In this document: one piece after another, positions 3,555 through 21,684 of the stretch
Layout of the letters: each line of letters starts with the position of its first letter
How positions within the stretch are numbered: position 1 is the first letter of the stretch
The notes under the pieces: generated by a model
Told to the model about the DNA's origin: nothing
Seen by the model: only the letters and a program-made list of their open reading frames with translations
Database searches by the model: none
Origin: Planctomycetales bacterium
GTDB lineage: Bacteria; 4484-113; JAFGCY01
DNA: 32,000 nt
Reading direction: 5' to 3'
NCBI GenBank assembly: GCA_022646745.1
Contig: CP060262.1
Span: 390,001-422,000, forward strand
Made by a program: the position numbers and the translations under genes

Positions 3555-3560
3555 GTGGAG

Positions 3561-4153: not shown

Positions 4154-4287
4154 GGCCCGTCTGGCCTTTTGAGTCAAGCGGTGGCGTGACGAGGCGCGCA
4201 ACTGCGCGATATGCTGCGTGCTCGCCTGTCTGGTTTTATTGGCGCAGAGGCGCAGAGATTCAGGAGGCGCAGAGGATTAAATTGCAT

Positions 4288-4332
4288 GTCAGGCTCTTTG
4301 CTCATTCTTCATTGCTCATTGCTTGCCTGCAT
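4288..4332 (+). repeat. TCATTGC word module, copy 2
   Basis: GTCAGGCTCTTTGCTCATTCTTCATTGCTCATTGCTTGCCTGCAT. Confidence 0.85.
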
Positions 4333-4438
4333 GCTCTCCCAATCGCACGAAGCGTGCGCCGCTACTTCCTGGCAATATGGAGCTTAGGGTTTGATTAACA
4401 CAGAGATCCACAGAGTCCCACAGAGGTATTCAATATCC

Positions 4439-4483
4439 GTCAGGCTCATTGCTCATTCTTCATTGCTCATTGCTTGCCGGCAT
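4439..4483 (+). repeat. TCATTGC word module, copy 3
   Basis: GTCAGGCTCATTGCTCATTCTTCATTGCTCATTGCTTGCCGGCAT. Confidence 0.85.
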
Positions 4484-4489
4484 ACCGAG

Positions 4490-4534
4490 CCTGACTGGCG
4501 TCAGGCCTCCGCGCCTGGCTAGCGCCAGACCTCC
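4490..4534 (-). repeat. Two GGAGG + hairpin units immediately after the helicase stop codon
   Basis: Plus strand reads CCTGAC-TGGC-GTCAGG CCTCC, then CTGGC-TAGC-GCCAG ACCTCC. In gene sense the order is TAG C GGAGG-hairpin GC GGAGG-hairpin. Confidence 0.8.
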
Positions 4535-4535
4535 G

Positions 4536-6887
4536 CTACCAGTCGTTGTCATTCCACTCCAACTGGGCCTCGTCGTAGCTGCCATCGGGCAGCTTCGTGA
4601 GGAAGCGGCTCGGGCGGTTGATGATGCGCTGGAAGTCATGCGTCTCGCTGATCATCGGGTAGCTCATGAACAGCAGCTGCTCGGCGCGCGTGACCGCCAC
4701 GTAGAACAGCCGGCGCTCCTCGTCCTCGCCCTCCGGGTCCGTGCGGCTCATGCGGTGCGGGATCACGTCGTCCTGCACATGCACGAGGAACACGGTGTGC
4801 CACTCCAGCCCCTTGGCCTGGTGGATCGTTGACAATGTGACCGCGCCCTCCTCCGGGTCGTCCGCGCCCTCGACCTCCTGGCCCTGCAGCTCGCTGCCGC
4901 TGAAGCTGCCGTTCAGGCCGATCTCGGCTAGGAAGGCGGTGACCGTGTCGAACTGGTTGGCGAAGATCTCCAGCTGCTCGAGGTCGTCCAGCCGCTGGCG
5001 CCAGTTCTCCCATTTCATCTGCAGGTAGTCACTGTAGCGCTCGTCGATCACGCGGCGGATCAGCTCGGAGGGCGGCGTTGTCAGCGCCTCCGGCTCGAGC
5101 TTCTCGAGGAAGCTCTTCAGTTCTCCGAGCGTCTCCTTGGCCTTGCCACGCACGCCTTCCACCACACCGTTGTAGATGAACTTCTGCAGTGGGTTCTGCA
5201 CGCGCAGCTTGCCGACCACACCGGCGACCGTCTTCGGGCCGACGCGATCGCACATCTCGAGCATGCGTTGCCAGGCCAGCTCGTCATGCGAGTTGGCAAG
5301 CACCAAGAGGTAGCTCAGCACGTCCTTCAGGTGCGCCTGCTCGAAGAAGCGCAGGCCGCCGCGCACCACGAAGGGAATGCCGCGGCGCGTGAACTCCAGC
5401 TCGACCTCCAGCCGGTTGGCATGCGCGCGGTAGAGCACGGCGATCTGCTTGTAGTCCAGCTGGTGCTCCTCGCGCAGGGACAGGATCTGCTCGCAGACGA
5501 ACTCGGCCTGCTCCTCGCGCGAATTGCAGGCAACCAGCAGCGGGCGGTCCTCGGAGCTGGGCTTGACACTGACCAGCTGCTTCTTAAACTCAGCCGGTCC
5601 CTCGCCAAGGATGGCGTTGGCAAGGTCCAGCACCTGCGGCGTGGAGCGGTAGTTCGTCTCCAGCTTGCAGATGTTGGCACCGGGGAAACTCGTGGGGAAG
5701 CTGAGGATGTTGCGGAAGTCGGCACCGCGGAAGGAGAAGATGCTCTGGGCGTCGTCACCGACCACGAACAGGCTGCGCCCCTGGGGAGCCTCCGGGCTGT
5801 CCTCGACGGGCTCCTCCAGGTCGTCATTCGGCTCAGGCACTTCTGTGCGCAGGGTGGTGGACATGATGTCAATCTGCTGCCCGGCGAAGCGAGCGGCGTT
5901 GAAGGGATCGGAAGGAGTAGCAGAAACAGAATGAGAATCAGAAGGAGAATCATAATCAGAAGCAGAAGCAGCAGGCAGCGGGGCGGGTACGTCCGACTCG
6001 TCATCGCCAACTGGTACGGCCGGTTTCTCCTCACCGCGCGGGTCGCCGAATGTCTCCGCGCGCTCCCTCATCATCTTCTCGGTGACGGGGAAGTTCATCC
6101 ACTTCACGATCTCGGCCTGGATGTGGTTGACATCCTGGTACTCGTCGACGAGCAGCTGAGTGAAGCGGCCGCATAGCCGGCGGCGCACGCCGGGGTGTTC
6201 CTGCAGCAGCTTGAGCCAGTTGATCAGCAGGTCGTCAAAGTCCATCTGGTTGCTCTGGAACTTGCGCTCCGTGTAGAGGATCAGCACGCGCTGGATCTCG
6301 GCGTACTGGTCATACAGGTGCGGGTAGCGCGCGGAGAGCAGGCTTTCGAGGTCGGTGTTGGTGTTGACCATTGCGCTGCCGATATCAACCAGCACGCGGT
6401 CGCTCGGGAAGCTCTTGCCGCTGCCCTCGATGCCGGCCTCCGTGCGGCAGAGCTTCATCACCTGGCGCTGGTCGGCACTGTCGAGGATCGTGAAGCTGGA
6501 GTTGAAGCCGATGTGGCGCGAGTAGCGGCGCAGCACTAGGTTGGCAATCGAGTGGAAGGTCCCGCCGGTGATTTCGCGCGCCGGGCGGCCGATCAGGGCC
6601 TCGGCGCGGTCCAGCATGCTCTTTGCCGCCTTGTTGGTGAAGGTCGTCATCATGATCCGGCGCGGGTTGATGCGCAGCTCGCCAATCAGGTAGGCGATGC
6701 GGTAGACGATCACCCGCGTCTTGCCACTGCCGGCCCCGGCCAGCACCAGCGTGGCACCGAGCGGCGCGGTGACTGCGGCGTACTGCTGCTCATTGAGCTC
6801 GGCGCGCCAGTCGATGTTGAAGGGGGAGTGACGCTCCTCAGCCGTGCGGCTGAGCCTGATCCTCCTGATGTCGCGGTTCTCCGTCAC
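4536..6887 (-). CDS. UvrD/PcrA/Rep-family ATP-dependent DNA helicase carrying a ~100-aa low-complexity insertion between helicase motifs II and III
   Basis: LNEQQYAAV, Walker A AGAGSGKT, LLVDEYQD, VVGDDAQSIFSFRGA, TNYRS, TIHQAKGLEW and LFYVAVTRA motifs are all present in order. GTG start at 6887..6885. Confidence 0.9.
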   Translation of the reverse strand: MTENRDIRRIRLSRTAEERHSPFNIDWRAELNEQQYAAVTAPLGATLVLAGAGSGKTRVIVYRIAYLIGELRINPRRIMMTTFTNKAAKSMLDRAEALIGRPAREITGGTFHSIANLVLRRYSRHIGFNSSFTILDSADQRQVMKLCRTEAGIEGSGKSFPSDRVLVDIGSAMVNTNTDLESLLSARYPHLYDQYAEIQRVLILYTERKFQSNQMDFDDLLINWLKLLQEHPGVRRRLCGRFTQLLVDEYQDVNHIQAEIVKWMNFPVTEKMMRERAETFGDPRGEEKPAVPVGDDESDVPAPLPAASASDYDSPSDSHSVSATPSDPFNAARFAGQQIDIMSTTLRTEVPEPNDDLEEPVEDSPEAPQGRSLFVVGDDAQSIFSFRGADFRNILSFPTSFPGANICKLETNYRSTPQVLDLANAILGEGPAEFKKQLVSVKPSSEDRPLLVACNSREEQAEFVCEQILSLREEHQLDYKQIAVLYRAHANRLEVELEFTRRGIPFVVRGGLRFFEQAHLKDVLSYLLVLANSHDELAWQRMLEMCDRVGPKTVAGVVGKLRVQNPLQKFIYNGVVEGVRGKAKETLGELKSFLEKLEPEALTTPPSELIRRVIDERYSDYLQMKWENWRQRLDDLEQLEIFANQFDTVTAFLAEIGLNGSFSGSELQGQEVEGADDPEEGAVTLSTIHQAKGLEWHTVFLVHVQDDVIPHRMSRTDPEGEDEERRLFYVAVTRAEQLLFMSYPMISETHDFQRIINRPSRFLTKLPDGSYDEAQLEWNDNDW
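5921..5975. repeat. AGAATG/AGAATC/AGAAGC hexamer-word array inside the helicase coding sequence (antisense to the gene)
   Basis: CAGAAACAGAATGAGAATCAGAAGGAGAATCATAATCAGAAGCAGAAGCAGCAGG. It shares the exact 19-mer GAAACAGAATGAGAATCAG with intergenic 31441-31459. Confidence 0.8.
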
Positions 6888-8137: not shown

Positions 8138-8449
8138 TACTTCCACCTGCAAGCTTCGCTGCGCTCGGGCAGCAGTTTCGCCATGTGCAGCGGCTTTCTA
8201 AACGCGGAGTCGCGGAGACGCAGAGAATAAAGGAGAAGAGAAATCCAACGCTGGGTCGCTGGGGCGCTGGGAATCTCTAAACGAACAAGTTCCGGCTGCC
8301 GGGTCTGCTATCTGCTTTCTGCTTTCTGCAAACCGTCGGATTGCTTCGCTGCGCTCGGGTCACAGAACGGCAGTGTGTAACGGTTCTCTTAACGCGAAGG
8401 CGCGAAGACGCGAAGCGTTTCAAGGAGGGAAATATCAAATCTGAAATCC

Positions 8450-8746
8450 GTATCGGCGCTGCCCGGCAGCGCCAGCGCGCGTGATGCTGCGAAAGGGCAA
8501 GCCCTTGCGCGAGTGAGACTTCTTTACAGGAGAAACTGACTGCCTGAAAGGGAAGTAGGGATGGGGTAACACCCCATCCCGGTGGCGGTATTACCGCCAC
8601 CCTACTTCAAACTACAGTTCAAGCCAGTGTTGCTTTGAACCACCAAGCCACAAGAACACCAGGGCTTATGACAATCCCTACCTAGCGCAAGGTGGTGCGC
8701 ACGAAGAATCAGCTCGCGTGCTGGCGTCGCCGGGCGACGCCGGTAC
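8450..8746 (+). repeat. Inverted-repeat-bounded ~297-nt unit (family B, copy 1) containing Y element type 1
   Basis: Left end GTATCGGCGCTGCCCGGCAGCGCCAGCGCGCGTGATGCTG. The reverse complement of the right end is GTACCGGCGTCGCCCGGCGACGCCAGCACGCGAGCTGAT. Collinear with 10816-11105. Confidence 0.7.
8552..8608 (+). repeat. Y-shaped element type 1, copy 2
   Basis: GAAGTAGGGATGGGGTAACACCCCATCCCGGTGGCGGTATTACCGCCACCCTACTTC. Confidence 0.85.
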
Positions 8747-8864
8747 ATTATTAATGAAAGTTGATTCCATAAACGGAAGAAAAACTCTTTGTGCTCTGTG
8801 CTCTCTGTGGTTGGAATCTCAGAGTGCTCCTCTTACTCGTTGTGCGACTCGCGCCGCACCTCCG

Positions 8865-9191: not shown

Positions 9192-10530
9192 CGCCGTCCT
9201 CGCGGCGCACGCGCATTTCACCGGCCGCCGGCTGCACGCGCAGCACTTCACCGGGGGCCACGTTCGCGGCATCACGTACGAGGCTGCCATCCTCACGCCA
9301 GACGAGCGAGAAGCCCAGCCCGAGCGGGGCACGCGGGTCGAGCGCCTTCAGGTGCTTCTCCATGTTGCCAACGCGCTGCCGGGCATCCTCGCTGGCATTG
9401 CGCGTAAGTCTGAGGAATTCGGCGGACAGGCGCGGCAGGCGGTAGGCATCCTCCTCCATGCGGCGCATCGTGAGCGTTGCCATCCTGTCCAGGAGCTCGC
9501 CGTGGCGGCCCTCGCTGCCGAGCCCGCTGTATTCCACGGCCAGCTCCGCCAGCTCATTGCCAAGCTCATCCAGGCGCTGGCTGCGCTCCTCCACGCTGCC
9601 CGCCACATCACGCAGCAGGCGGTGGTCGAACAGGCGCTTCAGGCGCTCGTTCGCATTGCCGAGGTTGTTGCGCAGCTCACGCACCAGCCGGCCGGTGCGG
9701 TCGCCGATCGCGCCGCGCAGCTCATTGACATCGGGGGTCACGACCTCGGCCGCGGCACTGGGGGTCGGGGCGCGGAAGTCGGCGACGAAGTCCACGATGG
9801 TGAAGTCGATCTCATGCCCGACGCCGGTGATCACCGGCGTCTCGATCTCCGCCAGCACACGCGCCAGCTTCTCGTCATTGAAGCACCAGAGGTCCTCGAG
9901 GCTGCCGCCGCCGCGCACGAGCAGGATGCTGTCGAGGCCGGGGAAACGGTCGGCGGCCTGCAGCGAGGCGATGATCTCGGGCGCTGCCTTGTCACCCTGC
10001 ACGCTGCAGGGGAAGAGCACGACCTCCATGTAGGGCGCACGGCGCCTGAGCACGTTCAGCACATCCTGCAGGGCAGCGGTGGCGATGCCGGTCACGATGC
10101 CGATGCGGCCGGCCACGGCGGGGGGGCGCAGCTTGCGTTCCGGGGAGAACAGGCCCTCGCCGTCGAGCTTGCGCTTGAGCGCTTCGAACTGGGCGGCGAG
10201 GTCGCCCTGCCCGCTCTTGATGATGTCGTCACAGATGATCTGGTAGTTGCCGCCCTTCGGGTAGACGCGCACGTCGCCATGCACCATCACGGCGTCGCCG
10301 TCGGCGGGCGGGCGGGCCTTGCGACGGCCGAAGCCGAACCAGGCGCAGGTGATCTGGCTGTCGGCGTCCTTCAGCGTGAAGTAGAGGTGGCCGCTGCCAG
10401 CGAGGCGCACATTGGAGGCCTCGCCCTTGACCCAGACGCTGCGCAGCTCGGAGTCGCTCTCGAGCAGCTGCTTGATGCGCGCGGTCAGGCGCGAGACGGT
10501 GATTTCGGAGTGGGCCGTGCTTCCTTCCAC
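9184..10530 (-). CDS. xseA: Exodeoxyribonuclease VII large subunit
   Basis: N-terminal OB-fold signature ITVSRLTARIKQLLESD..VWVKGEASNVRLAGSGHLYFTLKDADSQITCAWF, the catalytic core GIVTG..GAALQD..RGGGSLEDLWCFNDE, and a helical tail. GTG start with TATAAT 6 nt upstream. Confidence 0.9.
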   Translation of the reverse strand: MEGSTAHSEITVSRLTARIKQLLESDSELRSVWVKGEASNVRLAGSGHLYFTLKDADSQITCAWFGFGRRKARPPADGDAVMVHGDVRVYPKGGNYQIICDDIIKSGQGDLAAQFEALKRKLDGEGLFSPERKLRPPAVAGRIGIVTGIATAALQDVLNVLRRRAPYMEVVLFPCSVQGDKAAPEIIASLQAADRFPGLDSILLVRGGGSLEDLWCFNDEKLARVLAEIETPVITGVGHEIDFTIVDFVADFRAPTPSAAAEVVTPDVNELRGAIGDRTGRLVRELRNNLGNANERLKRLFDHRLLRDVAGSVEERSQRLDELGNELAELAVEYSGLGSEGRHGELLDRMATLTMRRMEEDAYRLPRLSAEFLRLTRNASEDARQRVGNMEKHLKALDPRAPLGLGFSLVWREDGSLVRDAANVAPGEVLRVQPAAGEMRVRREDGDA

Positions 10531-10536
10531 GGACTG

Positions 10537-10542
10537 ATTATA
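10537..10542 (-). promoter_or_regulatory. -10 box TATAAT, 6 nt upstream of the xseA GTG
   Basis: Plus strand ATTATA at 10537-10542, spacer 10531-10536, GTG at 10530..10528. Confidence 0.5.
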
Positions 10543-10604
10543 GAGGGGAGGCGACTCGCTGCGCTCGAATGGCGGAGAGGCAGGATGCAGTCACGAAGCC
10601 TATG

Positions 10605-10706
10605 AGTCAATGAGTCAATGTGTCAAGGAGTCAAGGAGTCAATGATTGGCGGCGTGATTCTCTCAAACGGATGTTGTTGACTGATTGACTATGTGACTAA
10701 GTGACT
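10605..10706. repeat. Third copy of the AGTCAA/TTGACT word palindrome (5 + 4 units)
   Basis: AGTCAATGAGTCAATGTGTCAAGGAGTCAAGGAGTCAATG ... GTTGACTGATTGACTATGTGACTAAGTGACT. Confidence 0.85.
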
Positions 10707-10815
10707 GCTGAATTGGCTCGCTTGCGCTCGAATGGCAACGAGGTATTCAGGGCGGTTTTATTAACACGGAGTCGCGGAGGGAATTCAAGGAGAAGAAACT
10801 TCACAATGAATATCC

Positions 10816-11105
10816 GTACCGGCGCTGCCCGGCAGCGCCAGCGCGCGTGATGCTGCAAAAGGACAAACCCTTGCACTAGTGAGATTTCGTGGCGAGAGAA
10901 GCTGATTGCCTAAAGGGAAGCAGGGATGGGGTAAGGCCCCATTTGCGGTGTCGGTATTACCGCCACACTACTTCAGACAGTTATCCAAGCCGTCTTTGTT
11001 CCTAAACCACCAAGCCACCAGGGGAAATGACAATCCCTGCCTCGCGCAGCGTGGTGCGCACGCAGTATCAGCTCGCGTGCTGGCGGCACCTGGTGCCGCC
11101 GGTAC
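10816..11105 (+). repeat. Inverted-repeat-bounded ~290-nt unit (family B, copy 2)
   Basis: The left end GTACCGGCGCTGCCCGGCAGCGCCAGCGCGCGTGATGCTG matches copy 1 at every position except one (GTATCGG in copy 1 versus GTACCGG here). The right end is ...GCGTGCTGGCGGCACCTGGTGCCGCCGGTAC. Confidence 0.7.
10917..10974 (+). repeat. Y-shaped element type 1, copy 3 (degenerate)
   Basis: GAAGCAGGGATGGGGTAAGGCCCCATTTGCGGTGTCGGTATTACCGCCACACTACTTC. Several stem positions are mispaired. Confidence 0.7.
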
Positions 11106-11118
11106 TGATTATCCTGAC

Positions 11119-11139
11119 CTGTTTCTCATTCTGATTCTG
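11119..11139. repeat. Inverted copy of the hexamer-word block
   Basis: CTGTTTCTCATTCTGATTCTG is the exact reverse complement of CAGAATCAGAATGAGAAACAG at 24842-24862. Confidence 0.85.
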
Positions 11140-11172
11140 CTTCTTCTGACAACTGACAACTGACAACTGAAT

Positions 11173-11224
11173 GGAGTGTTGGTCTCAGACCAACAGGGCC
11201 CTGTAGCTCTCAGAGCTACACTCC
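11173..11224. repeat. Y-shaped element type 2 (outer stem GGAGTGT/ACACTCC with two inner hairpins), copy downstream of lipoprotein paralog 3
   Basis: GGAGTGT TGGTC-TCA-GACCA ACAGGGCCCT GTAGCTC-TCA-GAGCTAC ACTCC. Confidence 0.85.
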
Positions 11225-11272
11225 GATTCTGACCACCGACCACTACTCCGGCGCGACCCGGCCGTGACCAAT

Positions 11273-14200
11273 TCAGAACTGTGGATTGTACTTCTGCTTG
11301 AGCCAGCCGATGATGTTCTGCAGCATGTCGGCGCGGGTCATCCCCGGCGGCTCCGACTCAGTGATGTTGACAGCGGCCCAGGGGTAGCCGACCACCCAGT
11401 GGCGGGTGTTGCCGTGGTTGCTGATTGCGTAGTTTGGCCAGAACCCAAGATCACGGTATGGGGCAACTGTAGTTCCCCAGCTCAGGTGTCCCAACCAGTA
11501 GCCATCGGCCTGTTGCTGGGGCGCGAGACCGAGCGACAGGCCTGGCAGGATGAAGAATGGGTCATCGTAGTATCCGATTCCTGTGTATTGCAAGCCAGTG
11601 CCAACGCTGAGCTGTGTCGCATGTTTTCCACTCGATCCATCCAGCAGGTAGTTCTCCCCTGACTTGCTCCAACTGTTTGAACGTCCCAGGAAGCCGAAGT
11701 CAGCGTTGAAACTGGAGGGAGCGGAACTGAAGTATTTTCCGGCACCCAACCCAGTTCCATCATCCGTGACCACGGCGGATGCCCAGCAATGCCTGTATTC
11801 CTGCTGAGGCACTGCATACGGAAGTGGAATGACATCGTAGTAGTACTCCCACCCGCCGAGCAAACCCAGGTCAGGAAAGTCATTGACCTTGGAGTTGTTC
11901 TGGCTCATCATCAGCATCGGCCGGCCCTGCTCAAGGATGGCGATGTAGTTGTCAATCTCAGCCGTAGTCCACATCGTCTCCTGGCGCGGCTCGATGGCAT
12001 CCGCCGGCCCGCCCCTGTACCAGAGGACGAGGAAGTGCCCGTGCGGCTGCAGGTCTGCCAGGATGCTGTCCGTGTACGGAATGACCTGCCAGTCCAGCCC
12101 GAGGCTGTCCAGGTCGGCTGTCAGCGCGGTGAGGTTGGCATCATAGCTGCCACCGTCATTGCGGATGATGGCGACATCGAAATCGCCACCGTAGACCACG
12201 ATGTCCTTCGTGACCGCCATCGACCCGACTTCATTGAAGCCGGCGAGGCTGACGGGATGGCTGCCGGGGCCAAGGCCGTCCAGCTGGACCTGCAGCTGGT
12301 CGACAAACTCATAGATGCCGTCATTGTCAACATCCCAGGCGAAGTAGTCAATCGCCGGGGAACCCTGCAGTGTTGTGACATCAAGGGTGACCGACAGCTC
12401 CTCATCCCCCAGCCGGGAGGGAGGATCGATGCTGAAGCCCAGCTCCATTGAGGCGCTGGGCACGAGGATCGTCTGGTACTCGATCGGCAGATCCTGCTTC
12501 AGGTACATCCTGATCCAGAACTGGGCGGAACCGCTGTTGATCTGTGCCTGGCCCGAGTAATCAAACGGCTCGACCAGGCTTTCATTGGAGAAACCCGGCC
12601 CGGACAGGCGAACATCTTCCACAAGGCCGTCCGGGTCAACAAGGTCCAGGCTGTATTCAAGTTCATACGGCCGGAAGTCGATCTCCGGGTTGAATTCGTG
12701 CATGTAGTATGGCGCCGTCAGGCAACTGGCAATCACCGGCTCGCTGATGGCCGCATTGCCAAACTTGTCACGCACCTCAAGCTGGACGGAAGTCTCAGAA
12801 CTGCCTGTGCAGCTGAACTGCCAGCTGCTGTCCGTGATGAAGCCGCCCTGCGGGATGCCGTCAAGCAGCAGCCGGCAGACCGGACTGGCACCCCAGAGGT
12901 TCGCCCGCCGTACTGTGAAATCCGCCGGCGCCAGCAGGACATCGTCATCCAGCACAGCTGTGACACTGGGCCAGGGATGCAGCTGCACGGTGCTGTCTGC
13001 CTCCCGGTACAGCCCATCAGTACCCAGCACCCTGAGGCGCACGGAATGCAGCTTGGCAATCTCAGGCGTGTATTCAAATGGCTCAGCCCCGCCGGTGACC
13101 TGCACTGCTTCCGGCTGTGAGTCCACATACCAGGCGTACTGCACGACTTCAGTGGTACCCCCAGTTATTGGTGTGAATGTGAAGCTGTGCGGTGCCACGG
13201 CCTCGCTTTCGCTCGGTTCAATGGCGACCGTCACCAGGCCCTCCAGGCTGAAGCTACTGAGCGCTTCAGAGCTGGCGCCGTCGCCGTCCGTAACGCGCAG
13301 CCGCACAAGGGAAGTGCCACCCATGAAGCCGGCGTCCAGCTGGGCAGCGGCATCGGCAAGCTCGAACTCGCCGTCGCCATCGAGGTCCCAGTCGTAGCTG
13401 GCAATCCCGCCGTCCCAGTCCGAACTGGCGGAGGCATCGAAGCTGACCGTATATGGCTCCGGGCCTTCCCCGACTTTATAGCTGAACTCCGCCTGCGGCA
13501 GGGCATTCAGCCTGTAACTGGCCAGCTTGCCGGGCTGCCCTTCAGTGCCTGAGCCTGCATCCCAGGCCGTGACGTAATACTCCATCGTCCCGGCTGTTGC
13601 CAGCTCATCCACATATGTGAAATCCCGGATGTCCCGCCGTGCCGCCTTCAGGAGGAAGGTCACATCACTCTCCGGCCCGCCCGGCCCCGGCAGCAGCTCA
13701 GTCTTCGCCAGCAGCGGAATGTGCCGGTACAGGCGGTAGCCCGTGATCCGCTCCTTCCAGTGCTGGGCGATCACTGTCACATCGGCGAGGCCGACCAGTC
13801 CATCCGCGTTGCCATCGATGTGAGAAAGAGTCCAGTTGTGGCTGCCGACGGAGTTGTCATCGCGGTCCCCGGCCGGCCAGTATATAAGTCCATCCGCTTC
13901 CTCCTCCGGCAGGTAGCTGACCTTCTCATTCCAGTGGATCGCCAGCGGTACAAGGTCGGAGGCGTTGACCTCACCGTTGCCATCGTAATCGCCCGGCAGG
14001 CGGGCCGTCCAGCTCAGTTCGATGCGGTTGAGCTGTTCATTCACATCGGAGACGCGCTTCGCCTGGAGGGTGAACACCTCCGTCCCCGCGGCCGGGGCAG
14101 CACTGGCATTGCGCTCGGTCCCGAGCCGCTCCAGTTCAGCAGCAAGGAACTGCTCCAGCTCTGAGAAGTCGGCTGCTTCAGGTGCAGTGGATTCGACAGC

Positions 14201-14380
14201 AGGCTGTATTGCATTGTCAGGTTGGCCAGCCGGTGACTGTCCGCGCAGGCTGTGAGGTTCCGCCCTGCCCTGCCGCGCCAGTTCACCACTGCCGGAGGAA
14301 CAGGCTGCCAGGCACAGCGCAAGCAGGGCCAGCAGGCCCGCTGCCAGACGCATCGACAAGTTGTCAGAACTGCGGGTCAT
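11273..14380 (-). CDS. Large secreted lipoprotein, paralog 3 of 3: lipobox signal, dockerin-like Ca-binding loops, FN3-like module, PKD/Ig-like repeats, C-terminal alpha/beta domain with variable insert
   Basis: 1035 aa. MRLAAGLLALLALCLAAC lipobox. GDYDGNGEVNASDLVPL and DGNADGLVGLADVTVIAQHW (dockerin/EF-hand-like). GYRLYR...YYVTAWD (FN3-like). FDASASSDWDGGIASYDWDLDGDGEFE...LRVTDGDG (PKD). An alternative start at ATG 14353 (MRLAAG...) would remove the overlap with the upstream gene. Confidence 0.85.
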   Translation of the reverse strand: MTRSSDNLSMRLAAGLLALLALCLAACSSGSGELARQGRAEPHSLRGQSPAGQPDNAIQPAVESTAPEAADFSELEQFLAAELERLGTERNASAAPAAGTEVFTLQAKRVSDVNEQLNRIELSWTARLPGDYDGNGEVNASDLVPLAIHWNEKVSYLPEEEADGLIYWPAGDRDDNSVGSHNWTLSHIDGNADGLVGLADVTVIAQHWKERITGYRLYRHIPLLAKTELLPGPGGPESDVTFLLKAARRDIRDFTYVDELATAGTMEYYVTAWDAGSGTEGQPGKLASYRLNALPQAEFSYKVGEGPEPYTVSFDASASSDWDGGIASYDWDLDGDGEFELADAAAQLDAGFMGGTSLVRLRVTDGDGASSEALSSFSLEGLVTVAIEPSESEAVAPHSFTFTPITGGTTEVVQYAWYVDSQPEAVQVTGGAEPFEYTPEIAKLHSVRLRVLGTDGLYREADSTVQLHPWPSVTAVLDDDVLLAPADFTVRRANLWGASPVCRLLLDGIPQGGFITDSSWQFSCTGSSETSVQLEVRDKFGNAAISEPVIASCLTAPYYMHEFNPEIDFRPYELEYSLDLVDPDGLVEDVRLSGPGFSNESLVEPFDYSGQAQINSGSAQFWIRMYLKQDLPIEYQTILVPSASMELGFSIDPPSRLGDEELSVTLDVTTLQGSPAIDYFAWDVDNDGIYEFVDQLQVQLDGLGPGSHPVSLAGFNEVGSMAVTKDIVVYGGDFDVAIIRNDGGSYDANLTALTADLDSLGLDWQVIPYTDSILADLQPHGHFLVLWYRGGPADAIEPRQETMWTTAEIDNYIAILEQGRPMLMMSQNNSKVNDFPDLGLLGGWEYYYDVIPLPYAVPQQEYRHCWASAVVTDDGTGLGAGKYFSSAPSSFNADFGFLGRSNSWSKSGENYLLDGSSGKHATQLSVGTGLQYTGIGYYDDPFFILPGLSLGLAPQQQADGYWLGHLSWGTTVAPYRDLGFWPNYAISNHGNTRHWVVGYPWAAVNITESEPPGMTRADMLQNIIGWLKQKYNPQF

Positions 14381-17300
14381 AATCCACCTTCAGCCAGGCG
14401 ATGATGTTCTGCAGCATGTCGGCGCGGGTCATCCCCGGCGGCTCCGACTCAGTGATGTTGACAGCGGCCCAGGGGTAGCCGATGACCCAATGGCGGGTTG
14501 ATCCGTGATCAGAGAAATTCCTGCCTGGCCAGGTACCAATATTACGATAGGGGGAGAAGTAGCTGCCCCAGCTGAAATGAGCCAGCTTGTAACCACTTAA
14601 CTCTTCCAGCGGAGTAAGACCAGTCGTTGCATAAAGGACTGTCTCCGAGTGGAAACCTTCCTCATAAAGGCCGATGCCGCAATATTGCAGGCCATCCGGC
14701 ATCTCAATCTGGCTGGCCCGGTACCCGGAGCTGCCTTCTTCGTTGTAACTTTCAACCCGCCACTTTGATGCTTCCCTGCTTGTCAATGTGCCCAGGTCTG
14801 CAGTGAAGCTCTGCGGTGATGTCGGGAAGAACTGGCCCTTCTCGAATCCAATGCCGTCATCCGTGACGACACTTGAAGCCCAGGCGTGCCTGGATTCCTC
14901 AAATGGAAGTGTATAGGCCTGCAAATCTGCTCCGTAGAAGAATTCCCAGCCACCAAACCAATCTAGTGGATGGTGATCTGTCAGCTTGGAGTTGTTCTGG
15001 CTCATCATCAGCATCGGCCGGCCCTGCTCAAGGATGGCAATGTAGTTGTCAATCTCAGCCTCAGCCCACATCGTCTCCTGGCGCGGCTCGATGGCATCCG
15101 CCGGCCCGCCCCTGTACCAGAGGACGAGGAAGTGCCCGTGCGGCTGCAGGTCTGCCAGGATGTCGTCCGTGTACGGAATGACCTGCCAGTCCAGCCCGAG
15201 GCTGTCCAGGTCGGCTGTCAGCGCATTGAGGTTGGCATCGTAGCTGCCACCTTCATTGCGAATGATGGCGACATCGAAATCCCCACCGTAGACCACGATG
15301 TCCTTCGTGACAGCCTTCGACCCGACTTCATTGAACCCGGCGAGGCTGACGGGATGGCTGCCGGGGCCAAGGCCGTCCAGCTGGACCTGCAGCTGGTCGA
15401 CAAACTCATAGATGCCGTCATTGTCAACATCCCAGGCGAAGTAGTCAATCGCCGGGGAACTCTGCAGTGTTGTGACATCAAGGGTGACCGACAGCTCATC
15501 ATCTCCCAGCCGGGACGGGGGATCGCTGCTGAAGTCCAGCTCCATTGTGGCACTGGGCACGAGGATCGTCTGGTACTCGATCGGCAGATCCTGCTTCAGG
15601 TACATCCTGATCCAGAACTGGGCGGAACCGCTGTTGATCTGTGCCTGGCCCGAGTAATCAAACGGCTCGACCAGGCTTTCATTGGAGAAACCCGGCCCGG
15701 ACAGGCGAACATCTTCCACAAGGCCGTCCGGGTCAACAAGGTCCAGGCTGTATTCAAGTTCATACGGCCGGAAGTCGATCTCCGGGTTGAATTCGTGCGT
15801 GTAGTATGGCGCCGTCAGGCAACTGGCAATCACCGGCTCGCTGATGGCCGCATTGCCAAACTTGTCACGCACCTCAAGCTGGACGGAAGTCTCTGAGCTT
15901 TCCGCGCAGCTGAACTGCCAGCTGCTGTCCGTGATGAAGCCGCCCTGCGGGATGCCGTCAAGCAGCAGCCGGCAGACCGGACTGGCACCCCAGAGGTTCG
16001 CCCGCCGTACTGTGAAATCCGCCGGCGCCAGCAGGACATCGTCATCCAGCACAGCTGTGACACTGGGCCAGGGATGCAGCTGCACGGTGCTGTCTGCCTC
16101 CCGGTACAGCCCATCAGTACCCAGCACCCTGAGGCGCACGGAATGCAGCTTGGCAATCTCAGGCGTGTATTCAAATGGCTCAGCCCCGCCGGTGACCTGC
16201 ACTGCTTCCGGCTGCGCATCCACGTACCAGGCGTACTGCACAACTTCCGTCGTTCCACCGATCAGCGGAGTGAAGATGAAGCTGTGCGGTGCCACGGCTT
16301 CGCTTTCGCTCGGTTCAATGGCGACCGTCACAAGGCCCTTCAGGCTGAAGCTCCTGAGCGCTTCAGAGCTGGCGCCGTCGCCGTCCGTAACGCGCAGCCG
16401 CACAAGGGAAGTGCCACCCATGAAGCCGGCGTCCAGCTGGACAGCGGCATCGGCAAGCTCGAACTCGCCGTCGCCATCGAGGTCCCAGTCGTAGCTGGCA
16501 ATCCCGCCGTCCCAGTCCGAACTGGCGGAGGCATCGAAGCTGACCGTGTATGGCTCCGGGCCTTCCCCGACTTTATAGCTGAACTCCGCCTGCGGCAGGG
16601 CATTCAGCCTGTAACTGGCCAGCTTGCCGGGCTGCCCTTCAGTGCCTGAGCCTGCATCCCAGGCCGTGACGTAATACTCAATCGTCCCGGCTGTTGCCAG
16701 TTCGTCCACATAGCTGAAGTCCCGGATGTCCCGCCTTGCAGCCTTGAGGAGGAAAGTCACATCACTCTGCGGCCCGCCTGGGCCCGGCAGCAGTTCAGTC
16801 TTCGCCAGCAGCGGGATGTGCCGGTACAGGCGGTAGCCCGTGATCCGCTCCTGCCAGTGCTGGGCAATCACTGTCACATCGGCGAGGCCGACCAGTCCAT
16901 CCGCGTTGCCATCGATATGCGAAAGCGTCCAGTTGTGGCTGCCGACGGAGTCGTCATCGCGGTCCCCAGCGGGCCAGTATGCAACTCCGCCCGCTTCCTC
17001 CTCCGGCTGGTAGCTGACCTTCTCATTCCAGTGGATCGCCAGGGGCACCAGGTCGGAGCTGTTGACCTCGCCGTTGCCATCGTAGTCACCGGGCAGGCGG
17101 GCCGTCCAGCTCAGTTCGATCCGGTTGAGCTGCTCGTTCACATCGGAGACGCGCTTCGCCTGGAGGGTGAACACTTCCGTCCCCGCGGCTGGCGCGGCAC
17201 TGGCATTGCGCTCAGTCCCGAGCCGCTCCAGCTCATCAGTGAGGAACTGCTCCAGCTCTGAGAAGTCGGCTGCAGCAGGTGCAGTGGATTCGACAGCAGG

Positions 17301-17477
17301 CTGTATAGCATTGTCAGGTTGGCCAGCCGGTGACTGTCCGCGCAGGCTGTGAGGTTCCGCCCTGCCCTGCTGCGCCAGTTCACCACTGCCGGAGGAACAG
17401 GCGGCCAGGCACAGCGCAAGCATGGCCAGCAGGCCCGCCGCCAGACGCATCGACAAGTTGTCAGAACTGCGGGTCAT
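14364..17477 (-). CDS. Large secreted lipoprotein, paralog 2 of 3 (same architecture as paralog 3)
   Basis: 1037 aa. By eye it differs from paralog 3 at roughly one residue in twenty over the first ~830 aa and again matches over the last ~45 aa, but is strongly divergent in between. Alternative start at ATG 17450. Confidence 0.85.
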   Translation of the reverse strand: MTRSSDNLSMRLAAGLLAMLALCLAACSSGSGELAQQGRAEPHSLRGQSPAGQPDNAIQPAVESTAPAAADFSELEQFLTDELERLGTERNASAAPAAGTEVFTLQAKRVSDVNEQLNRIELSWTARLPGDYDGNGEVNSSDLVPLAIHWNEKVSYQPEEEAGGVAYWPAGDRDDDSVGSHNWTLSHIDGNADGLVGLADVTVIAQHWQERITGYRLYRHIPLLAKTELLPGPGGPQSDVTFLLKAARRDIRDFSYVDELATAGTIEYYVTAWDAGSGTEGQPGKLASYRLNALPQAEFSYKVGEGPEPYTVSFDASASSDWDGGIASYDWDLDGDGEFELADAAVQLDAGFMGGTSLVRLRVTDGDGASSEALRSFSLKGLVTVAIEPSESEAVAPHSFIFTPLIGGTTEVVQYAWYVDAQPEAVQVTGGAEPFEYTPEIAKLHSVRLRVLGTDGLYREADSTVQLHPWPSVTAVLDDDVLLAPADFTVRRANLWGASPVCRLLLDGIPQGGFITDSSWQFSCAESSETSVQLEVRDKFGNAAISEPVIASCLTAPYYTHEFNPEIDFRPYELEYSLDLVDPDGLVEDVRLSGPGFSNESLVEPFDYSGQAQINSGSAQFWIRMYLKQDLPIEYQTILVPSATMELDFSSDPPSRLGDDELSVTLDVTTLQSSPAIDYFAWDVDNDGIYEFVDQLQVQLDGLGPGSHPVSLAGFNEVGSKAVTKDIVVYGGDFDVAIIRNEGGSYDANLNALTADLDSLGLDWQVIPYTDDILADLQPHGHFLVLWYRGGPADAIEPRQETMWAEAEIDNYIAILEQGRPMLMMSQNNSKLTDHHPLDWFGGWEFFYGADLQAYTLPFEESRHAWASSVVTDDGIGFEKGQFFPTSPQSFTADLGTLTSREASKWRVESYNEEGSSGYRASQIEMPDGLQYCGIGLYEEGFHSETVLYATTGLTPLEELSGYKLAHFSWGSYFSPYRNIGTWPGRNFSDHGSTRHWVIGYPWAAVNITESEPPGMTRADMLQNIIAWLKVDYDPQF

Positions 17478-20400
17478 AGTCCACCTTCAGCCAGCCGATG
17501 ATGTTCTGCAGCATGTCCGCGCGTGTCATGCCGGGCGGCACCGAATCAGCGATATCTACTGCCGCCCATGGGAAGCCTACAACCCACTGGCGTGTGTTGC
17601 CATGGTCACTGAAGCTGTAGTTCGGCCAGTGGCCCATATTGCGGTATGGAGTCTGGGTCCCACCCCAGCTGCCATAGACCAGGTTGAAGCCGTTCTGCAA
17701 CGGAGTGACAACCAATCCAGTGATTCCACTGGGGGGAACCGGCTCAAGGAAATCATTGCTGTATGCCGTGCAGCTTAGTTGCAGGCCTGGTTCAAGAACA
17801 ATCTGCTTGACGGAGTACCCAGAGCTGCCTGGGCCACCATACTTTTCCGCAGTATAGTCAAAATCCCAGATAGTTCTGTCGATCATCCCAGTCACATCCC
17901 CGGAGAAGCTTACCGGGGCAAACTCAAACCACTGATTGGTTCCGAATCCGGTGTATCTGTCACACATCAGCGCCTGCGCCCAAATTAAGCGATGCTCATC
18001 TGCATCAACAACAGCATCCTGGATGTCTGCGTTGAAAAAGGTTTCATATCCGCCGGACCATTCCGGATGTTCTGACGGCCTTGTGCTGTTCTGGCTCATC
18101 ATCAGCATCGGCCGGCCCTGCTCTAGGAGCGCGATGTAGTTGTCAATCTCCGCCGTGGTCCACATCGTCTCCTGGCGCGGCTCGATGGCATCCGCCGGAC
18201 CGCCGCGGTACCACAGCACCACGAAGTGCCCGTGGCTGAGCAGATCACTGGCAATGCTGTCCGAGTACGGGAATTCCTGCCAGCTCAGGGCAAGTGAGTC
18301 AAGGTCGTCCTTGATTGCGTCAATGTTCGTGCTGTATGTCCCGCCGTCGTTGCGGATGATGGCGACATCCGTCTCAACCGGCCAGACCTGCATGGTATGG
18401 CTGAAGGAGCGTGTGTCGCCAATGGAGTTCTCCACTTCCAGCCTGACTTCATGAATACCGGGCTCCAGCCAATTGGTAGTGAAGTGGAATTCATTCAAAT
18501 TGGAGCCATAGCCACCGTTCACAAACCACTCATGACTGCGTATGGATGGGTACCCATCGTATTCCGTGATGTCCACTTCCGCATTGACCCCACTGCCCAT
18601 GTATGACTCCGGCGTAATGCTGAAGTCAGCAAGGATGTACCCCGAATCAAAGTAATAATCAGTTGCCAGGTCAGGATACTGGAACATGTCAAGCGTCAGT
18701 CTGAAGTACGGCCAGTTTGACTGGCCTGCTCCTTCGCTTGTGTTATATGTTCCACCTTTAAGCGAGACACTCTTGTCAGGATCCGTGTCTCCATTTGGCA
18801 ATCTGACGAGGATCTGGTTCACCAGGTTGTCAGGATCGTCAATTTCAGTGATCTGCCAGTTTATGTCAAACGGATATGTCCCGATCTTCGGATCGTATTC
18901 GAAGGTGATGTCAGGCAGTACCTGTGCCTTCACTGTGTAGGCCTTGCTCAGTGCCGTGTTGCCGAACTTGTCAATCGCCTCGACCTGCAGCTCCGCACTG
19001 CCTCTCTCCTGCAGCACGTACAGCCAGCTTGTCTGCTGGTTGAATTCACCCTGCGGGTTGCCATCCACCACGAGACGGAAAAGCGGGTCCGCACCGCTGG
19101 AGGCGGTGACACTCTGGGTGAATGTCGCTGGTGCCAGACCATATGCACTTTCCGGCCTGGCTGTGACACTGACTTCCGCATGGCACTGCAGCAACAGGCT
19201 GGCTTCGCGGTAGATGCCGTCCTCGCCCTTCACCTTGAGGCGCGCGGTAGTTGATTCCGGGGAATTGAGAGTGAACTGTTTCGGCTCCGGCGTGAATTCC
19301 AGTGCGACCGGCGTCTCATCCGCACCTTCATACCATTCATACTGCACAGCCGGCATGCTGCCGCTGACAACAGGATTGACGGTGAAGGTATGCGGGGTAA
19401 TGGCCTCGGATTCGTCCACCTGCAGCTGCACATTCAGCAGGGAGGGCAGCAGGATGTTGCGGCTCAGCACGGTCTGCCCGCCCTGGTCATCGGTCACCCG
19501 CAGCTGGATGAGCGGGAAGCCCGCCGGCAGCACCGCCTCGATCTCGGCTGAGTCCGCCGCATCGGCAAACTCGCCGTCGCCATCGAGGTCCCATGCGTAA
19601 CTGACGATCTCACCGTCAGGATCATTGCTGCCCAGCGCGCTGAAGGAGAGCGTATAGGGTTCGTCCTCCACGAGGATCTCGTAGTCAAACTCCGCGATCG
19701 GCTGCATGTTGACGAGGTAGGAGGCGATGTTGCCTTCCGGTGCTTCCGTGTCTGTGAACTCGTCCCAGGCGCGCACCGTGTACTGATAGCTGCCGGGGAT
19801 GCCGACACTGTCAATGTAGGCATACTCCCGCAGGACCGGGTCGTCCGCCTCGCGGCTGACACTGATCGGGCTGTCCTCCACGTCCGGCATCGGCAGCAGC
19901 ACCCCGTTGCCAAGCTCCAGGTTGCGGCGGTAGATGCGGTAGCCGGTGTAGCGCTGCTTCCAGTGCTGCGCGATCACCGTCACGTCGGCCATGCCAACCA
20001 CGCCGTCATGGTTGCCATCAACATAGCTCGCCAGCCAGTTCTGCCTGCCAAGCGAATTGTCATGCCGGTCACCCGCCGGGAAGTGGTCGATGCCGCTTTC
20101 CTCCACAGGCAGGTAGGAAACCTGCTGGCCCCAGCGCTGGCCAAGCGGCACGAGGTCGCCGAAGTTCACTTCGCCATTGCCGTCGTAGTCACCGGGCAGG
20201 TGCTTGGTCCAGCGCAGTTCCACCCGGTTGAGCTGCTCACCGGGTCCGGAAACACGGGTGGCCGACAGGTTGAACACCGCGCTGTCGGCACCGGGGGCTT
20301 CGCTGGCCGTGCGCTGCTTCTCCAGGCGCTCCAGTTCAGCAAGCAGGAAGTTCTCGATCCGCTCAATGTCGCATTCGCCGCCGGAGCTAGCGGTCGGATC

Positions 20401-20637
20401 CACCGCTGCCGTATCCGAGTCGTCCTGCGCATTATCCGCAGCACCGTTCGTGATCACTTCCCCGTGTACGGTCAGCAGCTGGGAACTCTGGTTATTGGCA
20501 TCAAGTGAGCTGGACTTACTGCCGCCGCAGGATGCAAGCAGTAAAAGCAGCAGGCAGGCAGCAGCCAGCCGTGATGGAAGGAGCACGCGTGCAGCAGAAT
20601 TCGCCGTGTGCATCTTTTCAGCACTGATTTCAGCCAT
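17461..20637 (-). CDS. Large secreted lipoprotein, paralog 1 of 3 (more divergent copy, same domain order)
   Basis: 1058 aa. LLLLLLASCGG lipobox, GDYDGNGEVNFGDLVPL and DGNHDGVVGMADVTVIAQHW, a PKD block (SNDPDGEIVSYAWDLDGDGEF...LRVTDDQGG), and the conserved C-terminal HGHFVVLWYRGGPADAIEPRQETMWTTAEIDNYI and GMTRADMLQNIIGWLKVDYDPQF. SD-like GGGGGA precedes ATG 20637; ATG 20613 is an alternative. Confidence 0.85.
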   Translation of the reverse strand: MAEISAEKMHTANSAARVLLPSRLAAACLLLLLLASCGGSKSSSLDANNQSSQLLTVHGEVITNGAADNAQDDSDTAAVDPTASSGGECDIERIENFLLAELERLEKQRTASEAPGADSAVFNLSATRVSGPGEQLNRVELRWTKHLPGDYDGNGEVNFGDLVPLGQRWGQQVSYLPVEESGIDHFPAGDRHDNSLGRQNWLASYVDGNHDGVVGMADVTVIAQHWKQRYTGYRIYRRNLELGNGVLLPMPDVEDSPISVSREADDPVLREYAYIDSVGIPGSYQYTVRAWDEFTDTEAPEGNIASYLVNMQPIAEFDYEILVEDEPYTLSFSALGSNDPDGEIVSYAWDLDGDGEFADAADSAEIEAVLPAGFPLIQLRVTDDQGGQTVLSRNILLPSLLNVQLQVDESEAITPHTFTVNPVVSGSMPAVQYEWYEGADETPVALEFTPEPKQFTLNSPESTTARLKVKGEDGIYREASLLLQCHAEVSVTARPESAYGLAPATFTQSVTASSGADPLFRLVVDGNPQGEFNQQTSWLYVLQERGSAELQVEAIDKFGNTALSKAYTVKAQVLPDITFEYDPKIGTYPFDINWQITEIDDPDNLVNQILVRLPNGDTDPDKSVSLKGGTYNTSEGAGQSNWPYFRLTLDMFQYPDLATDYYFDSGYILADFSITPESYMGSGVNAEVDITEYDGYPSIRSHEWFVNGGYGSNLNEFHFTTNWLEPGIHEVRLEVENSIGDTRSFSHTMQVWPVETDVAIIRNDGGTYSTNIDAIKDDLDSLALSWQEFPYSDSIASDLLSHGHFVVLWYRGGPADAIEPRQETMWTTAEIDNYIALLEQGRPMLMMSQNSTRPSEHPEWSGGYETFFNADIQDAVVDADEHRLIWAQALMCDRYTGFGTNQWFEFAPVSFSGDVTGMIDRTIWDFDYTAEKYGGPGSSGYSVKQIVLEPGLQLSCTAYSNDFLEPVPPSGITGLVVTPLQNGFNLVYGSWGGTQTPYRNMGHWPNYSFSDHGNTRQWVVGFPWAAVDIADSVPPGMTRADMLQNIIGWLKVDYDPQF

Positions 20638-20685: not shown

Positions 20686-20781
20686 TACCTGCCGTGGGGC
20701 GGATGTCAAGCGAGACGGGATGCCGCGCTTGTGAAACTATGGCCCGCGCGGGCCAGTCCTACAGCGGGGAGGTTATGCGGC

Positions 20782-21684
20782 ATGGATGAGGACATCGCAC
20801 GCTTTGAAGCACGCCGGACACGCGGCTGCCGCTGCTGCGGCTGGCTGCTGCTGGCTGGCCTGCTCGGGCTGGGCCTGATCATGTGGGGTGACTACAGCAG
20901 GTCGAAACGGATGGCGGAGACCATGAACACGGATGAGCTGATGAGCACCGAACAGGTGGAGCAGTTCATCGCCGAGAATGACATCAAGGTCAAGCACGAG
21001 GATGGTGAGTGGAAGGCCGAGCCCCCCTGGAAGCAGCCGATCGTGGACCAGCTGCGTGACCGCTTCGAGGACCTCGCCAGTGAGGAACGCATTGCCGAGA
21101 TGAAGCAGCGCGCCGAGGACAGCCGGCTGTACATCCGCAGCCTGCTGGACAAGTCGCCGGAGGAGCTGCGGCCTAAGCTGGATGAACTGAAGGAGCAGAT
21201 CGCCAACCTGACGGACCGTGAGACGGTGCGCGAGGCGATCGAGAAGGTGTCCGAACTGGACGGCGAATGGGTGGAGGAAGAGGCCCAGCGCCTGCTGGAC
21301 AGTAAACCAGGGGAGAACATCGAGCTGTATGTGTCGAAGCTGCAGGCGATGCTGGAGAACGTCAAGGATGAGGACTTGCGGCAGAAGCTGCGTGATGCAA
21401 TAGACGAGCAGCTGGGACAGCAGCAGCAGCAGGCCGAGCGCGGTGAGCTGCCGGACATCAACCCGGAGACTGGTGAAGTGCCCCTTGTGCTGGCATACCT
21501 GAAGGAACACAAGGATCCGCGCAAACCCGTGGACTGGAGCTTCGTGAAGGAAGTGGAGCTGGACGACGGCCCGGCCTACAGCGTGGATGTGATCTTTGGA
21601 GATGGTACGGAGACGACCTACTACATCCGCGGTGGCGAAGTGGTGCTGGTGGCGACGCGGGACAAGGCTGCAGATGACGCCTGA
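20782..21684 (+). CDS. Hypothetical membrane-anchored, charged coiled-coil-like protein (300 aa)
   Basis: ATG 20782 is preceded by GGAGG (20768-20772) at 9 nt, and I prefer it over the GTG at 20731. One N-terminal TM segment (CCGWLLLAGLLGLGLIMWG) is followed by an E/K/R/L-rich sequence. No family recognised. Confidence 0.6.
   Translation: MDEDIARFEARRTRGCRCCGWLLLAGLLGLGLIMWGDYSRSKRMAETMNTDELMSTEQVEQFIAENDIKVKHEDGEWKAEPPWKQPIVDQLRDRFEDLASEERIAEMKQRAEDSRLYIRSLLDKSPEELRPKLDELKEQIANLTDRETVREAIEKVSELDGEWVEEEAQRLLDSKPGENIELYVSKLQAMLENVKDEDLRQKLRDAIDEQLGQQQQQAERGELPDINPETGEVPLVLAYLKEHKDPRKPVDWSFVKEVELDDGPAYSVDVIFGDGTETTYYIRGGEVVLVATRDKAADDA

Follow-up and report, generated by a model that had tools for sequence, protein, structure and literature searches.

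Old lobe cassettes between near-identical flanks: a probable mosaic family of tandem lipoprotein-like genes in an uncultivated bacterium

How can two adjacent genes be nearly identical over most of their length and yet, within sharply drawn borders, share fewer than half of their residues? The question is raised by a 32,000-nucleotide stretch of the Planctomycetales bacterium assembly GCA_022646745.1 (contig CP060262.1, positions 390,001–422,000). The whole stretch is called the window below, positions are counted from its first letter, and its genome is denoted W. According to the open reading frame (ORF) list and the translations, the window contains an array of three paralogs, P1, P2 and P3, all running in the same direction on the minus strand. 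We consider it likely that they belong to a mosaic gene family, in which homologous recombination and gene conversion, with conserved blocks as anchors, have shuffled or preserved old modules. The features needed for the argument are the following; pS denotes the proportion of synonymous differences, pN that of nonsynonymous differences, and GC3 the GC content at third codon positions.

17461–20637, minus strand: P1, first gene of the array, 1058 aa, ~43% identical to P2 and P3
14364–17477, minus strand: P2, middle gene, 1037 aa
11273–14380, minus strand: P3, last gene, 1035 aa
17604–18086, minus strand: cassette of type 1 (P1), deepest-branching of five types, pS 0.73–0.85 against the others
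14498–14984, minus strand: cassette of type 2 (P2), edges from maximum-likelihood breakpoints, compared by pS and pN, GC3 0.57
11407–11887, minus strand: cassette of type 3 (P3), edges from maximum-likelihood breakpoints, domain residues ~97–253, predicted beta-rich lobe
11891–12034, minus strand: conserved block HGHF..WYRGGP..MLMMSQN of P3, directly 5′ of the cassette, beta3-alpha3-beta4 of the predicted fold
14988–15131 and ~18087–18225, minus strand: equivalent blocks of P2 and P1
11896–11916 (P3), 14993–15013 (P2) and 18087–18107 (P1), minus strand: 21-nt anchor TGCTGATGATGAGCCAGAACA, abutting the left cassette border
11273–11406, minus strand: conserved 3′ tail of P3, consisting of the strand RHWVVGYPWAAV and a C-terminal helix
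14364–14380, minus strand: 17-nt overlap of the P2 stop and the P3 start, sequence TATGACCCGCAGTTCTGA
17461–17477, minus strand: the same 17-nt overlap, seen in the junction sequence of P1 and P2

P3 and P2 were compared in a codon-aware alignment. Their proteins agree at 794 of 830 residues over alignment columns 1–858 (95.7%, one difference in ~23), at 69 of 160 (43%) in columns 859–1022, which form the cassette, and at 39 of 45 (87%) in the tail behind it. Within the cassette DNA identity falls to 51% and indels are present; the scaffold residues GGWE, RHxWA, GSSG, GLQY, SWG and PYR are kept, while the residues between them differ. A maximum-likelihood fit with two breakpoints counts 233 nucleotide mismatches in 480 positions inside the segment and 124 in 2625 outside (log-likelihood gain ~276; Fisher p = 1e-121). 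The original prediction, made from the letters of the window, had described two paralogs differing at about one residue in twenty over their first ~830 residues, a sharply bounded cassette of low identity and an identical stretch of ~85 nt near the 3′ end. All three descriptions hold: the fitted edges on P3 lie no more than 10 nt from those first proposed, and the identical stretch is an 83-nt string that occurs exactly twice, at 11309–11391 in the P3 tail and at 14400–14482 in P2.

Synonymous sites, counted according to Nei and Gojobori with a random expectation for pS of ~0.75, separate the segments by age. For the pair P3/P2, the N-terminal 810 alignment columns (782 codons) give a pS of 0.12 and the conserved block one of 0.03. 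In the cassette pS rises to 0.78, which is saturation, with a pN of 0.39, and in the tail it drops back to 0.23. Because saturated cassettes are set between flanks of low pS, the cassettes must be far older than the event that made the flanks alike. Uniform drift after duplication, already judged insufficient in the original prediction, cannot give such a pattern, in which synonymous divergence jumps across sharp breakpoints from 0.03–0.12 to 0.78. Outside the cassette, divergence between P2 and P3 is itself strongly patchy. In windows of 40 codons, flank pS ranges from 0.00 to 0.50, the index of dispersion is 3.66 versus 0.94 in permutations (0 of 2000 reach 3.66), and the longest identical run measures 309 nt versus a permutation maximum of 245. 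The patchiness together with the 309-nt tract is better explained by several conversion tracts that differ in age than by one duplication. P1 was tried as a donor of the divergent flank patches of P2 and P3 and rejected, as informative sites show no excess match to P1 in either copy.

The same chromosomal neighbourhood was found in three related genomes: K (ENA/Logan contigs L020–L022; housekeeping pS versus W 0.08–0.18), J (GCA_041395205.1, contig L019; 0.22–0.28) and U (UBP7 HKST-UBA03, contig L001; 0.29), with pS of 0.08–0.09 between the housekeeping genes of U and J. Each of them possesses one gene copy at the site, compared with three in W, and P1 is the ortholog of this single-copy gene. 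The orthologs are mosaics as well. P1 and the K gene are 90–100% identical at the protein level in columns 41–480 (95–100% in all but one window), where pS is mostly near 0 (0.00–0.21). Identity drops to 47–74% in columns 481–760 (pS 0.56–0.69), returns to 90% in the windows at the domain start (columns 761–840) and falls again in the cassette, to 58% in the border window 841–880 and 24–42% in columns 881–1000, with pS of 0.60–0.81. The left identity breakpoint of this pair coincides within ~8 nt with that of P3 and P2, beside the 21-nt anchor. The genes of U and J are orthologous in columns 1–280 only and replaced from there to the cassette end (pS 0.4–0.87). An involvement of gene conversion or cassette swapping, as originally proposed, is thus borne out both by the sharp breakpoints and by the reappearance of the same left breakpoint in an independent ortholog pair.

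Five cassette types occur in the four genomes, and in the wider family they group as a single clade. One type (casKJ) is common to K and J, and cassette 1 branches deepest; the other four types are 45–54% identical to one another. Cassette 3 is closer to casKJ and to the type of U (casU), at 52–54%, than to its own neighbour, cassette 2 (45%). Segment relationships are incongruent, since the 5′ part groups P2 with P3 as sisters (96%) and P1 with K (95–100%), whereas cassette 1 is unlike that of K. The cassette had also been described as the most divergent part of P1. This does not hold: identity between P3 and P1 is 33.5% in the cassette and only 25% in columns 541–760.

The block directly upstream of the cassette behaves in the opposite way. 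Its strong similarity in all three copies at the nucleotide level, stated from the outset, amounts to 87–90% identity, versus 35–70% in the rest of P1. Block pS against P1 is 0.32–0.36, and paralog pairs show about 0.20–0.36 over windows and alignments, versus ~0.65 elsewhere in those pairs, as would be expected if the block were converted from time to time among all copies. In the six-gene alignment (~3.2 kb), invariant runs of at least 14 nt occur only three times, all of them in the block before the cassette, and the anchor TGCTGATGATGAGCCAGAACA is the longest run invariant over all six genes of the four genomes.

What the cassette encodes was approached through the domain that contains it. 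The N-termini of P1, P2 and P3 carry a lipoprotein-type signal (...LAAC or ...LASC; LALCLAAC in P3), so that the paralogs are probably surface-exposed. In each of them the lipobox is followed by two dockerin-like Ca-loop repeats, a PKD_4 domain, ~360 residues and a C-terminal region of ~300 aa. PKD_4 (PF18911) scores above the gathering cutoff of 27 bits in all three paralogs (31.5–35.3 bits; 32.6 in P3). Dockerin type I (PF00404) reaches 14–19 bits, below its cutoff of 22.9, with the motif DYDGNGEVN...DGNADGLVGLADV visible. The ~360 residues after PKD_4 give no significant Pfam match and may represent further Ig-like repeats. For the C-terminal ~300 aa neither Pfam nor NCBIfam gives a match.

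A profile search run exhaustively against 1.84 billion cluster representatives yielded 54 proteins with the C-terminal domain, 24 of them at E < 1e-30; we regard the domain as rare and previously undescribed. It occurs in two architectures, one lipoprotein-dockerin-PKD and the other consisting of proteins of 1300–2100 aa with the domain near residues 600–900. At the sequence level the domain has no match to Pfam, NCBIfam or PDB, DUF4350 being touched by two of 27 members at E = 0.038. Structure prediction from the three paralogs alone gave a predicted local distance difference test score (pLDDT) of 32.5; AlphaFold2 with 27 family members reached a pLDDT of 93.4 and a predicted template modelling (TM) score of 0.93. 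The top Foldseek matches of this model in PDB are PabA, TrpG and the glutamine amidotransferase (GATase) subunit of GuaA (probability 0.99–1.0, target-normalised TM-score 0.57–0.64, E ~1e-3). DJ-1/PfpI and flavodoxin-like folds match the first half of the domain, and a viral library concurs. The domain is therefore confidently predicted to have a class I GATase-like fold.

Sixteen residues are invariant in the 27 members: D21, W52, G55, G56, P57, W69, E73, S91, Q92, G216, G234, P239, G255, G263, N287 and W291. W52 and G55-G56-P57 follow beta3 in the model, and S91-Q92 lie at the end of beta4. No Cys or His is invariant among these members, so the Cys-His-Glu triad of class I GATases is absent. 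The cassette corresponds to domain residues ~97–253, the second lobe, which is modelled as seven strands and two short helices. Over the distant family it is the least conserved region and holds 66 of the 92 insertion columns. The proposal of a ligand-binding insert is thus replaced by a different picture, since the segment would make up about half of the domain fold. The predicted fold and the conservation pattern suggest that the three isoforms would differ in binding or substrate specificity while sharing a common stalk.

Several observations concern the wider family. The proteins P0070, P0084 and P0153 (1.88-Mb contig of J) and P0076 possess the same dockerin-like/PKD stalk with another C-terminal domain of ~400 aa, and judging by these sequences the stalk appears to carry interchangeable heads over the wider family. 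A 6.8-kb ENA contig contains a P1 variant (P0177) with a 13-residue insertion, AADTQRTRPLEAV, in the PKD region beside a repeated EAV motif. A scan of metagenome contigs of the Joint Genome Institute (JGI) revealed no close relatives, and a broader one returned 16 distant, mostly single-copy loci that are uninformative on cassette exchange. One distant member, P0005, is single-copy and adjoins pilT and flagellin genes.

If hypervariable is taken to mean rapid or targeted mutation, this description of the segment finds no support. The cassettes are old, and mismatches between them show no adenine bias (P3-side base A 56, C 73, G 53, T 51). A tblastn search of the window with four cassette peptides returned only the three full genes and no silent, template or donor copy. 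Diversifying selection as the cause is not supported either: the only unsaturated comparison within a type, K versus J (87% identical), gives a ratio of nonsynonymous to synonymous substitution rates (dN/dS) of 0.11 in the cassette, that is, purifying selection acts within one cassette type; between types the ratio is not measurable because dS is saturated. The original prediction named a combination that would have spoken against it, dN/dS well below 1 in the cassette and no breakpoints at its edges. Low dN/dS is indeed what was found; the breakpoints, however, are present, and the finding stands.

Base composition separates the cassettes from their surroundings as well. GC3 is 0.57–0.62 in the cassettes of the window (0.62 in type 3), 0.74–0.76 in the rest of the genes upstream of the cassette, ~0.9 in the conserved block and 0.86–0.91 in housekeeping genes, with paralog averages of 0.72–0.74. 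The low cassette values may reflect either a recombination-cold segment that escapes GC-biased conversion or entry from donors of lower GC.

Taken as a mosaic, the locus probably arose as follows. Each cassette is one of at least five old homologous versions of the predicted second lobe of the C-terminal domain. The tandem copies would have converted one another and probably undergone unequal crossing-over, and diverged alleles of related lineages would have replaced gene segments. Breakpoints recur in two places, the ultra-conserved block on the 5′ side of the lobe and the strand and helix conserved at the 3′ end. The first 858 and the last 45 columns of P2 and P3 are young, owing to a recent duplication and/or to repeated conversion tracts of different ages. 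The cassettes have escaped overwriting, probably because 51% nucleotide identity leaves recombination nothing to pair; a further reason may be that distinct versions are useful. Lobe diversity may be maintained by selection, with phage or predator pressure or substrate range as possible agents. The pair P2/P3 may go back either to two old genes with homogenised flanks or to a recent duplication after which a foreign cassette was imported; the single-copy relatives and the low GC3 favour import, and the patchy flanks show that conversion acted too.

Three other explanations were weighed against this one. Diversification in situ after a recent duplication, driven by diversifying selection or by targeted hypermutation such as that of a diversity-generating retroelement, could account for sharp borders, for the retained scaffold residues and for the probable surface exposure indicated by the lipobox. 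We nevertheless regard it as very unlikely, since saturated synonymous sites (pS 0.78) are not a product of amino-acid selection, and the within-type dN/dS, the unbiased mismatches and the cassette indels all speak against it. So do the lack of a template or donor copy in the window, the closer kinship of cassette 3 with those of other genomes than with its neighbour cassette 2, and a Pfam scan that contained no reverse transcriptase among 23 window ORFs, smaller ORFs and the rest of the genome having been left unscanned. A diversity-generating retroelement as such was rejected on the same absence of a second cassette-like copy in the window, of adenine bias and of a reverse transcriptase in the 23 ORFs scanned. 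An assembly artefact, either a chimera of strain variants or a mis-resolved repeat, deserves mention because the array looks different in two other assemblies of the organism. In GCA_020440665.1 (JAGRNS010000006.1, here L002), P1 is identical and only two copies are present; the second gene (10001–13108) is a clean hybrid, P2-like to nt 1679 and P3-like from nt 1926, with the switch within an identical tract, and it is public as the protein MCB1219934.1. In L023 (ENA ERZ28655281, scaffold_7588, 2758–5865) the middle gene is a seven-segment patchwork of P2 and P3 with cassette 3 and a P2-type tail. Neither form contains a private variant, and cassette 2 is missing from both of these short-read assemblies. 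An artefact in the window is still scarcely credible: its proteins lie on a contig of 4,112,261 bp, cassette 2 is a unique intact homologous frame, beyond what collapse could invent, and the disagreeing assemblies lack sequence, as expected for the collapse of a 3.1-kb tandem repeat, with 0 of 16,840 flank positions different between L002 and the window.

A recent tandem duplication followed by the import of one foreign cassette, through a double crossover in the conserved flanks, has more in its favour, although we still think it improbable. K, J and U are single-copy, so W probably gained its copies recently; a cassette GC3 of 0.57–0.62 in a genome with GC3 near 0.89 looks un-ameliorated; replacement of the cassette or of a 3′ segment is directly seen in P1/K and U/J; and the P2 tail with the P3 start repeats the P1 tail with the P2 start, like a duplication junction. 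A single recent duplication, however, predicts even flank divergence, while the observed pS runs from 0 to 0.5, so later conversion would still be needed; no donor was found; and all three cassettes, including that of the old copy P1, are low in GC3, which hence need not mean recent import. As a separate and distinctly unlikely speculation, the 21–42-nt anchor and the 3′ conserved strand would go beyond passive homology and be dedicated recombination signals of a "specificity-lobe exchange", through which the uncultivated lineage would draw on a population-wide lobe pool. The lobes would then serve a new GATase1-like enzyme or receptor of the cell surface, possibly one based on serine. If so, lobe exchange would be a free-living counterpart of antigenic-variation cassette systems, with all variants made from one overlapping operon.

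Some points weigh against the mosaic interpretation preferred here. No donor was found for cassette 2 or 3, and close relatives among the 1.84 billion cluster representatives consist of these few metagenome-assembled genomes (MAGs) only; consequently, the allele pool is deduced and not seen. Positive selection between cassette types may have acted, dS being saturated there. Block pS between species (0.27–0.29) equals the housekeeping value, so an extra constraint at the nucleotide level is not needed, and conservation of the block could result from purifying selection alone. Finally, the L002 hybrid and the L023 patchwork are most simply short-read collapses of the 3.1-kb repeat and not true recombinants, although they may be real unequal-crossover variants.

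The gene junctions carry further information on the array. The P1 tail and the P2 start together form a sequence that recurs at the P2 tail and the P3 start. Over its final 17 aligned codons P2 matches P1 at 94% (aa) and 96% (nt), but P3 at 76% and 80%. These sequences indicate that the duplicated unit spans the gene junction. The genes of K (L020 13130–13174) and J (L019 13016–13060) end in ...TATGACCCGCAGTTCTGA with the overlapped start (MTRSS...) that is used by P2/P3, and the last 74 nt of the K gene are 100% identical to the P2 tail (window 14364–14437). In P3, the last gene of the array, that ATG is lost (KQKYNPQF). Such remnants hint at an origin of the single-copy genomes from arrays, or at an exchange of tails between the two.

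The neighbours of the array are ordinary housekeeping genes, including xseA, SDR, uvrD, a CNNM/CorC transporter, a Cys/Met pyridoxal phosphate-dependent enzyme, ksgA and moeA. Just upstream of P1, the ORFs at 20773–21702 (minus strand, 309 aa) and 21885–22424 give no Pfam match; genes of the same size stand at this position in K, J and L002, so they are conserved neighbours. In K, an AAA_15/AAA_21 ATPase gene and a 279-aa gene (L020 16389–19378) are located between SDR and uvrD; the pair is absent from the window and is possibly a small defence-type insertion.

An intergenic element of ~335 bp flanks xseA on both sides (8419–8753 and 10784–11111; 75–81% identity) and has no match in Rfam, which detects no RNA family in the window. 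Promoter-like and terminator-like matches in the window occur at or below chance expectation. Short palindromic repeats resembling repetitive extragenic palindromic (REP) sequences are found in many intergenic regions (25188–25372, 27713–27875, 29406–29592 and 11169–11226, with further ones at 2092–2154, 8550–8612, 10916–10978 and 25062–25118). One hairpin-rich REP-like unit of 57 nt is present in both orientations, 8552–8608 and 25062–25118 being 98% complementary. Purine-rich repeats with a 12-nt period (AGAATGAGAATCAGAAG-like) are located at 5887–5986, 22897–22989, 24821–24862, 31393–31468 and ~11120–11160. One 12-nt-period repeat is part of uvrD; its translation is an acidic insert rich in Ser (...ASASDYDSPSDSHSVSATPSD...), placed between the helicase domains.

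At this locus the gene is not the unit of evolution, as segments in one reading frame range from nearly zero age to saturation and the same breakpoint is reused in paralogs and orthologs. The domain family is rare (54 of 1.84 billion representatives, no Pfam model) and belongs to probable surface proteins of a candidate phylum without cultured members. Should the lobes determine which ligand or substrate is recognised, the locus would be a natural experiment in which specificity is exchanged while the scaffold stays fixed. For annotation it calls for caution, as short-read MAGs can collapse the array into hybrid genes and two public assemblies are left without cassette 2.

Several known systems resemble parts of this arrangement. 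Silent-cassette systems (pilE/pilS, vlsE, msp2/p44) and diversity-generating retroelements share with the array a variable segment flanked by conserved sequence in a surface protein. Silent-cassette antigenic variation was rejected for the array, where the window contains no partial donor copies and all three copies are full-length genes. A polymorphic toxin of the Rhs or contact-dependent inhibition (CDI) type was likewise rejected: the tail behind the cassette is similar again (87%), the cassettes share homology and one predicted fold, and the next gene is a paralog or xseA. Target-recognition domains of HsdS in type I restriction-modification systems follow a conserved-variable-conserved layout, in which diverged modules are swapped in conserved spacers and each type is under purifying selection. 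The array has no relation to HsdS in sequence, fold or function, and it lacks inverted repeats and an invertase. A shufflon or invertible cassette was rejected too, no inverted repeats being found near the cassettes.

Class I GATases (PabA, TrpG, GuaA; DJ-1/PfpI) resemble the C-terminal domain in predicted fold and in motif order, with the glycine-rich loop WYRGGP after beta3 followed by MSQ, a small residue at the end of beta4. The domain differs in its length (~300 aa versus ~190), its enlarged second lobe, its place in a lipoprotein with a secretion signal and its lack of an invariant Cys or His. In babA/babB of Helicobacter pylori, flaA/flaB of Campylobacter and opa of Neisseria, gene conversion keeps the ends nearly identical, a divergent specificity segment is retained and chimeras occur. 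Those genes, from host-associated pathogens under immune pressure, are mostly dispersed, whereas the array is tandem and overlapping and comes from an activated-sludge bacterium; their variable parts are loops, while here the variable part is predicted to be a structured half-domain.

The closest documented analog appears to be the tandem lipoprotein-like lpl cluster of the nuSa-alpha island of Staphylococcus aureus. A conserved nucleotide stretch in every ORF of that cluster was proposed as a recombination site, and the unit that evolves there extends across gene junctions (Tsuru and Kobayashi 2008, PMC2568036). Both the lpl cluster and the array comprise tandem lipoprotein paralogs with an internal conserved stretch, shuffled variable regions and a copy number that differs between genomes. 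The array, of which only three copies and four genomes are available for comparison, belongs to an unrelated family with an unrelated fold and to the uncultivated UBP7 lineage; its variable unit is bounded on both sides, and its genes overlap by 17 nt where lpl genes are separated by intergenic spacers. Recombination of surface-protein genes at a conserved anchor is thus a known evolutionary route, and what is new here is its setting in an undescribed domain family and an uncultivated lineage.

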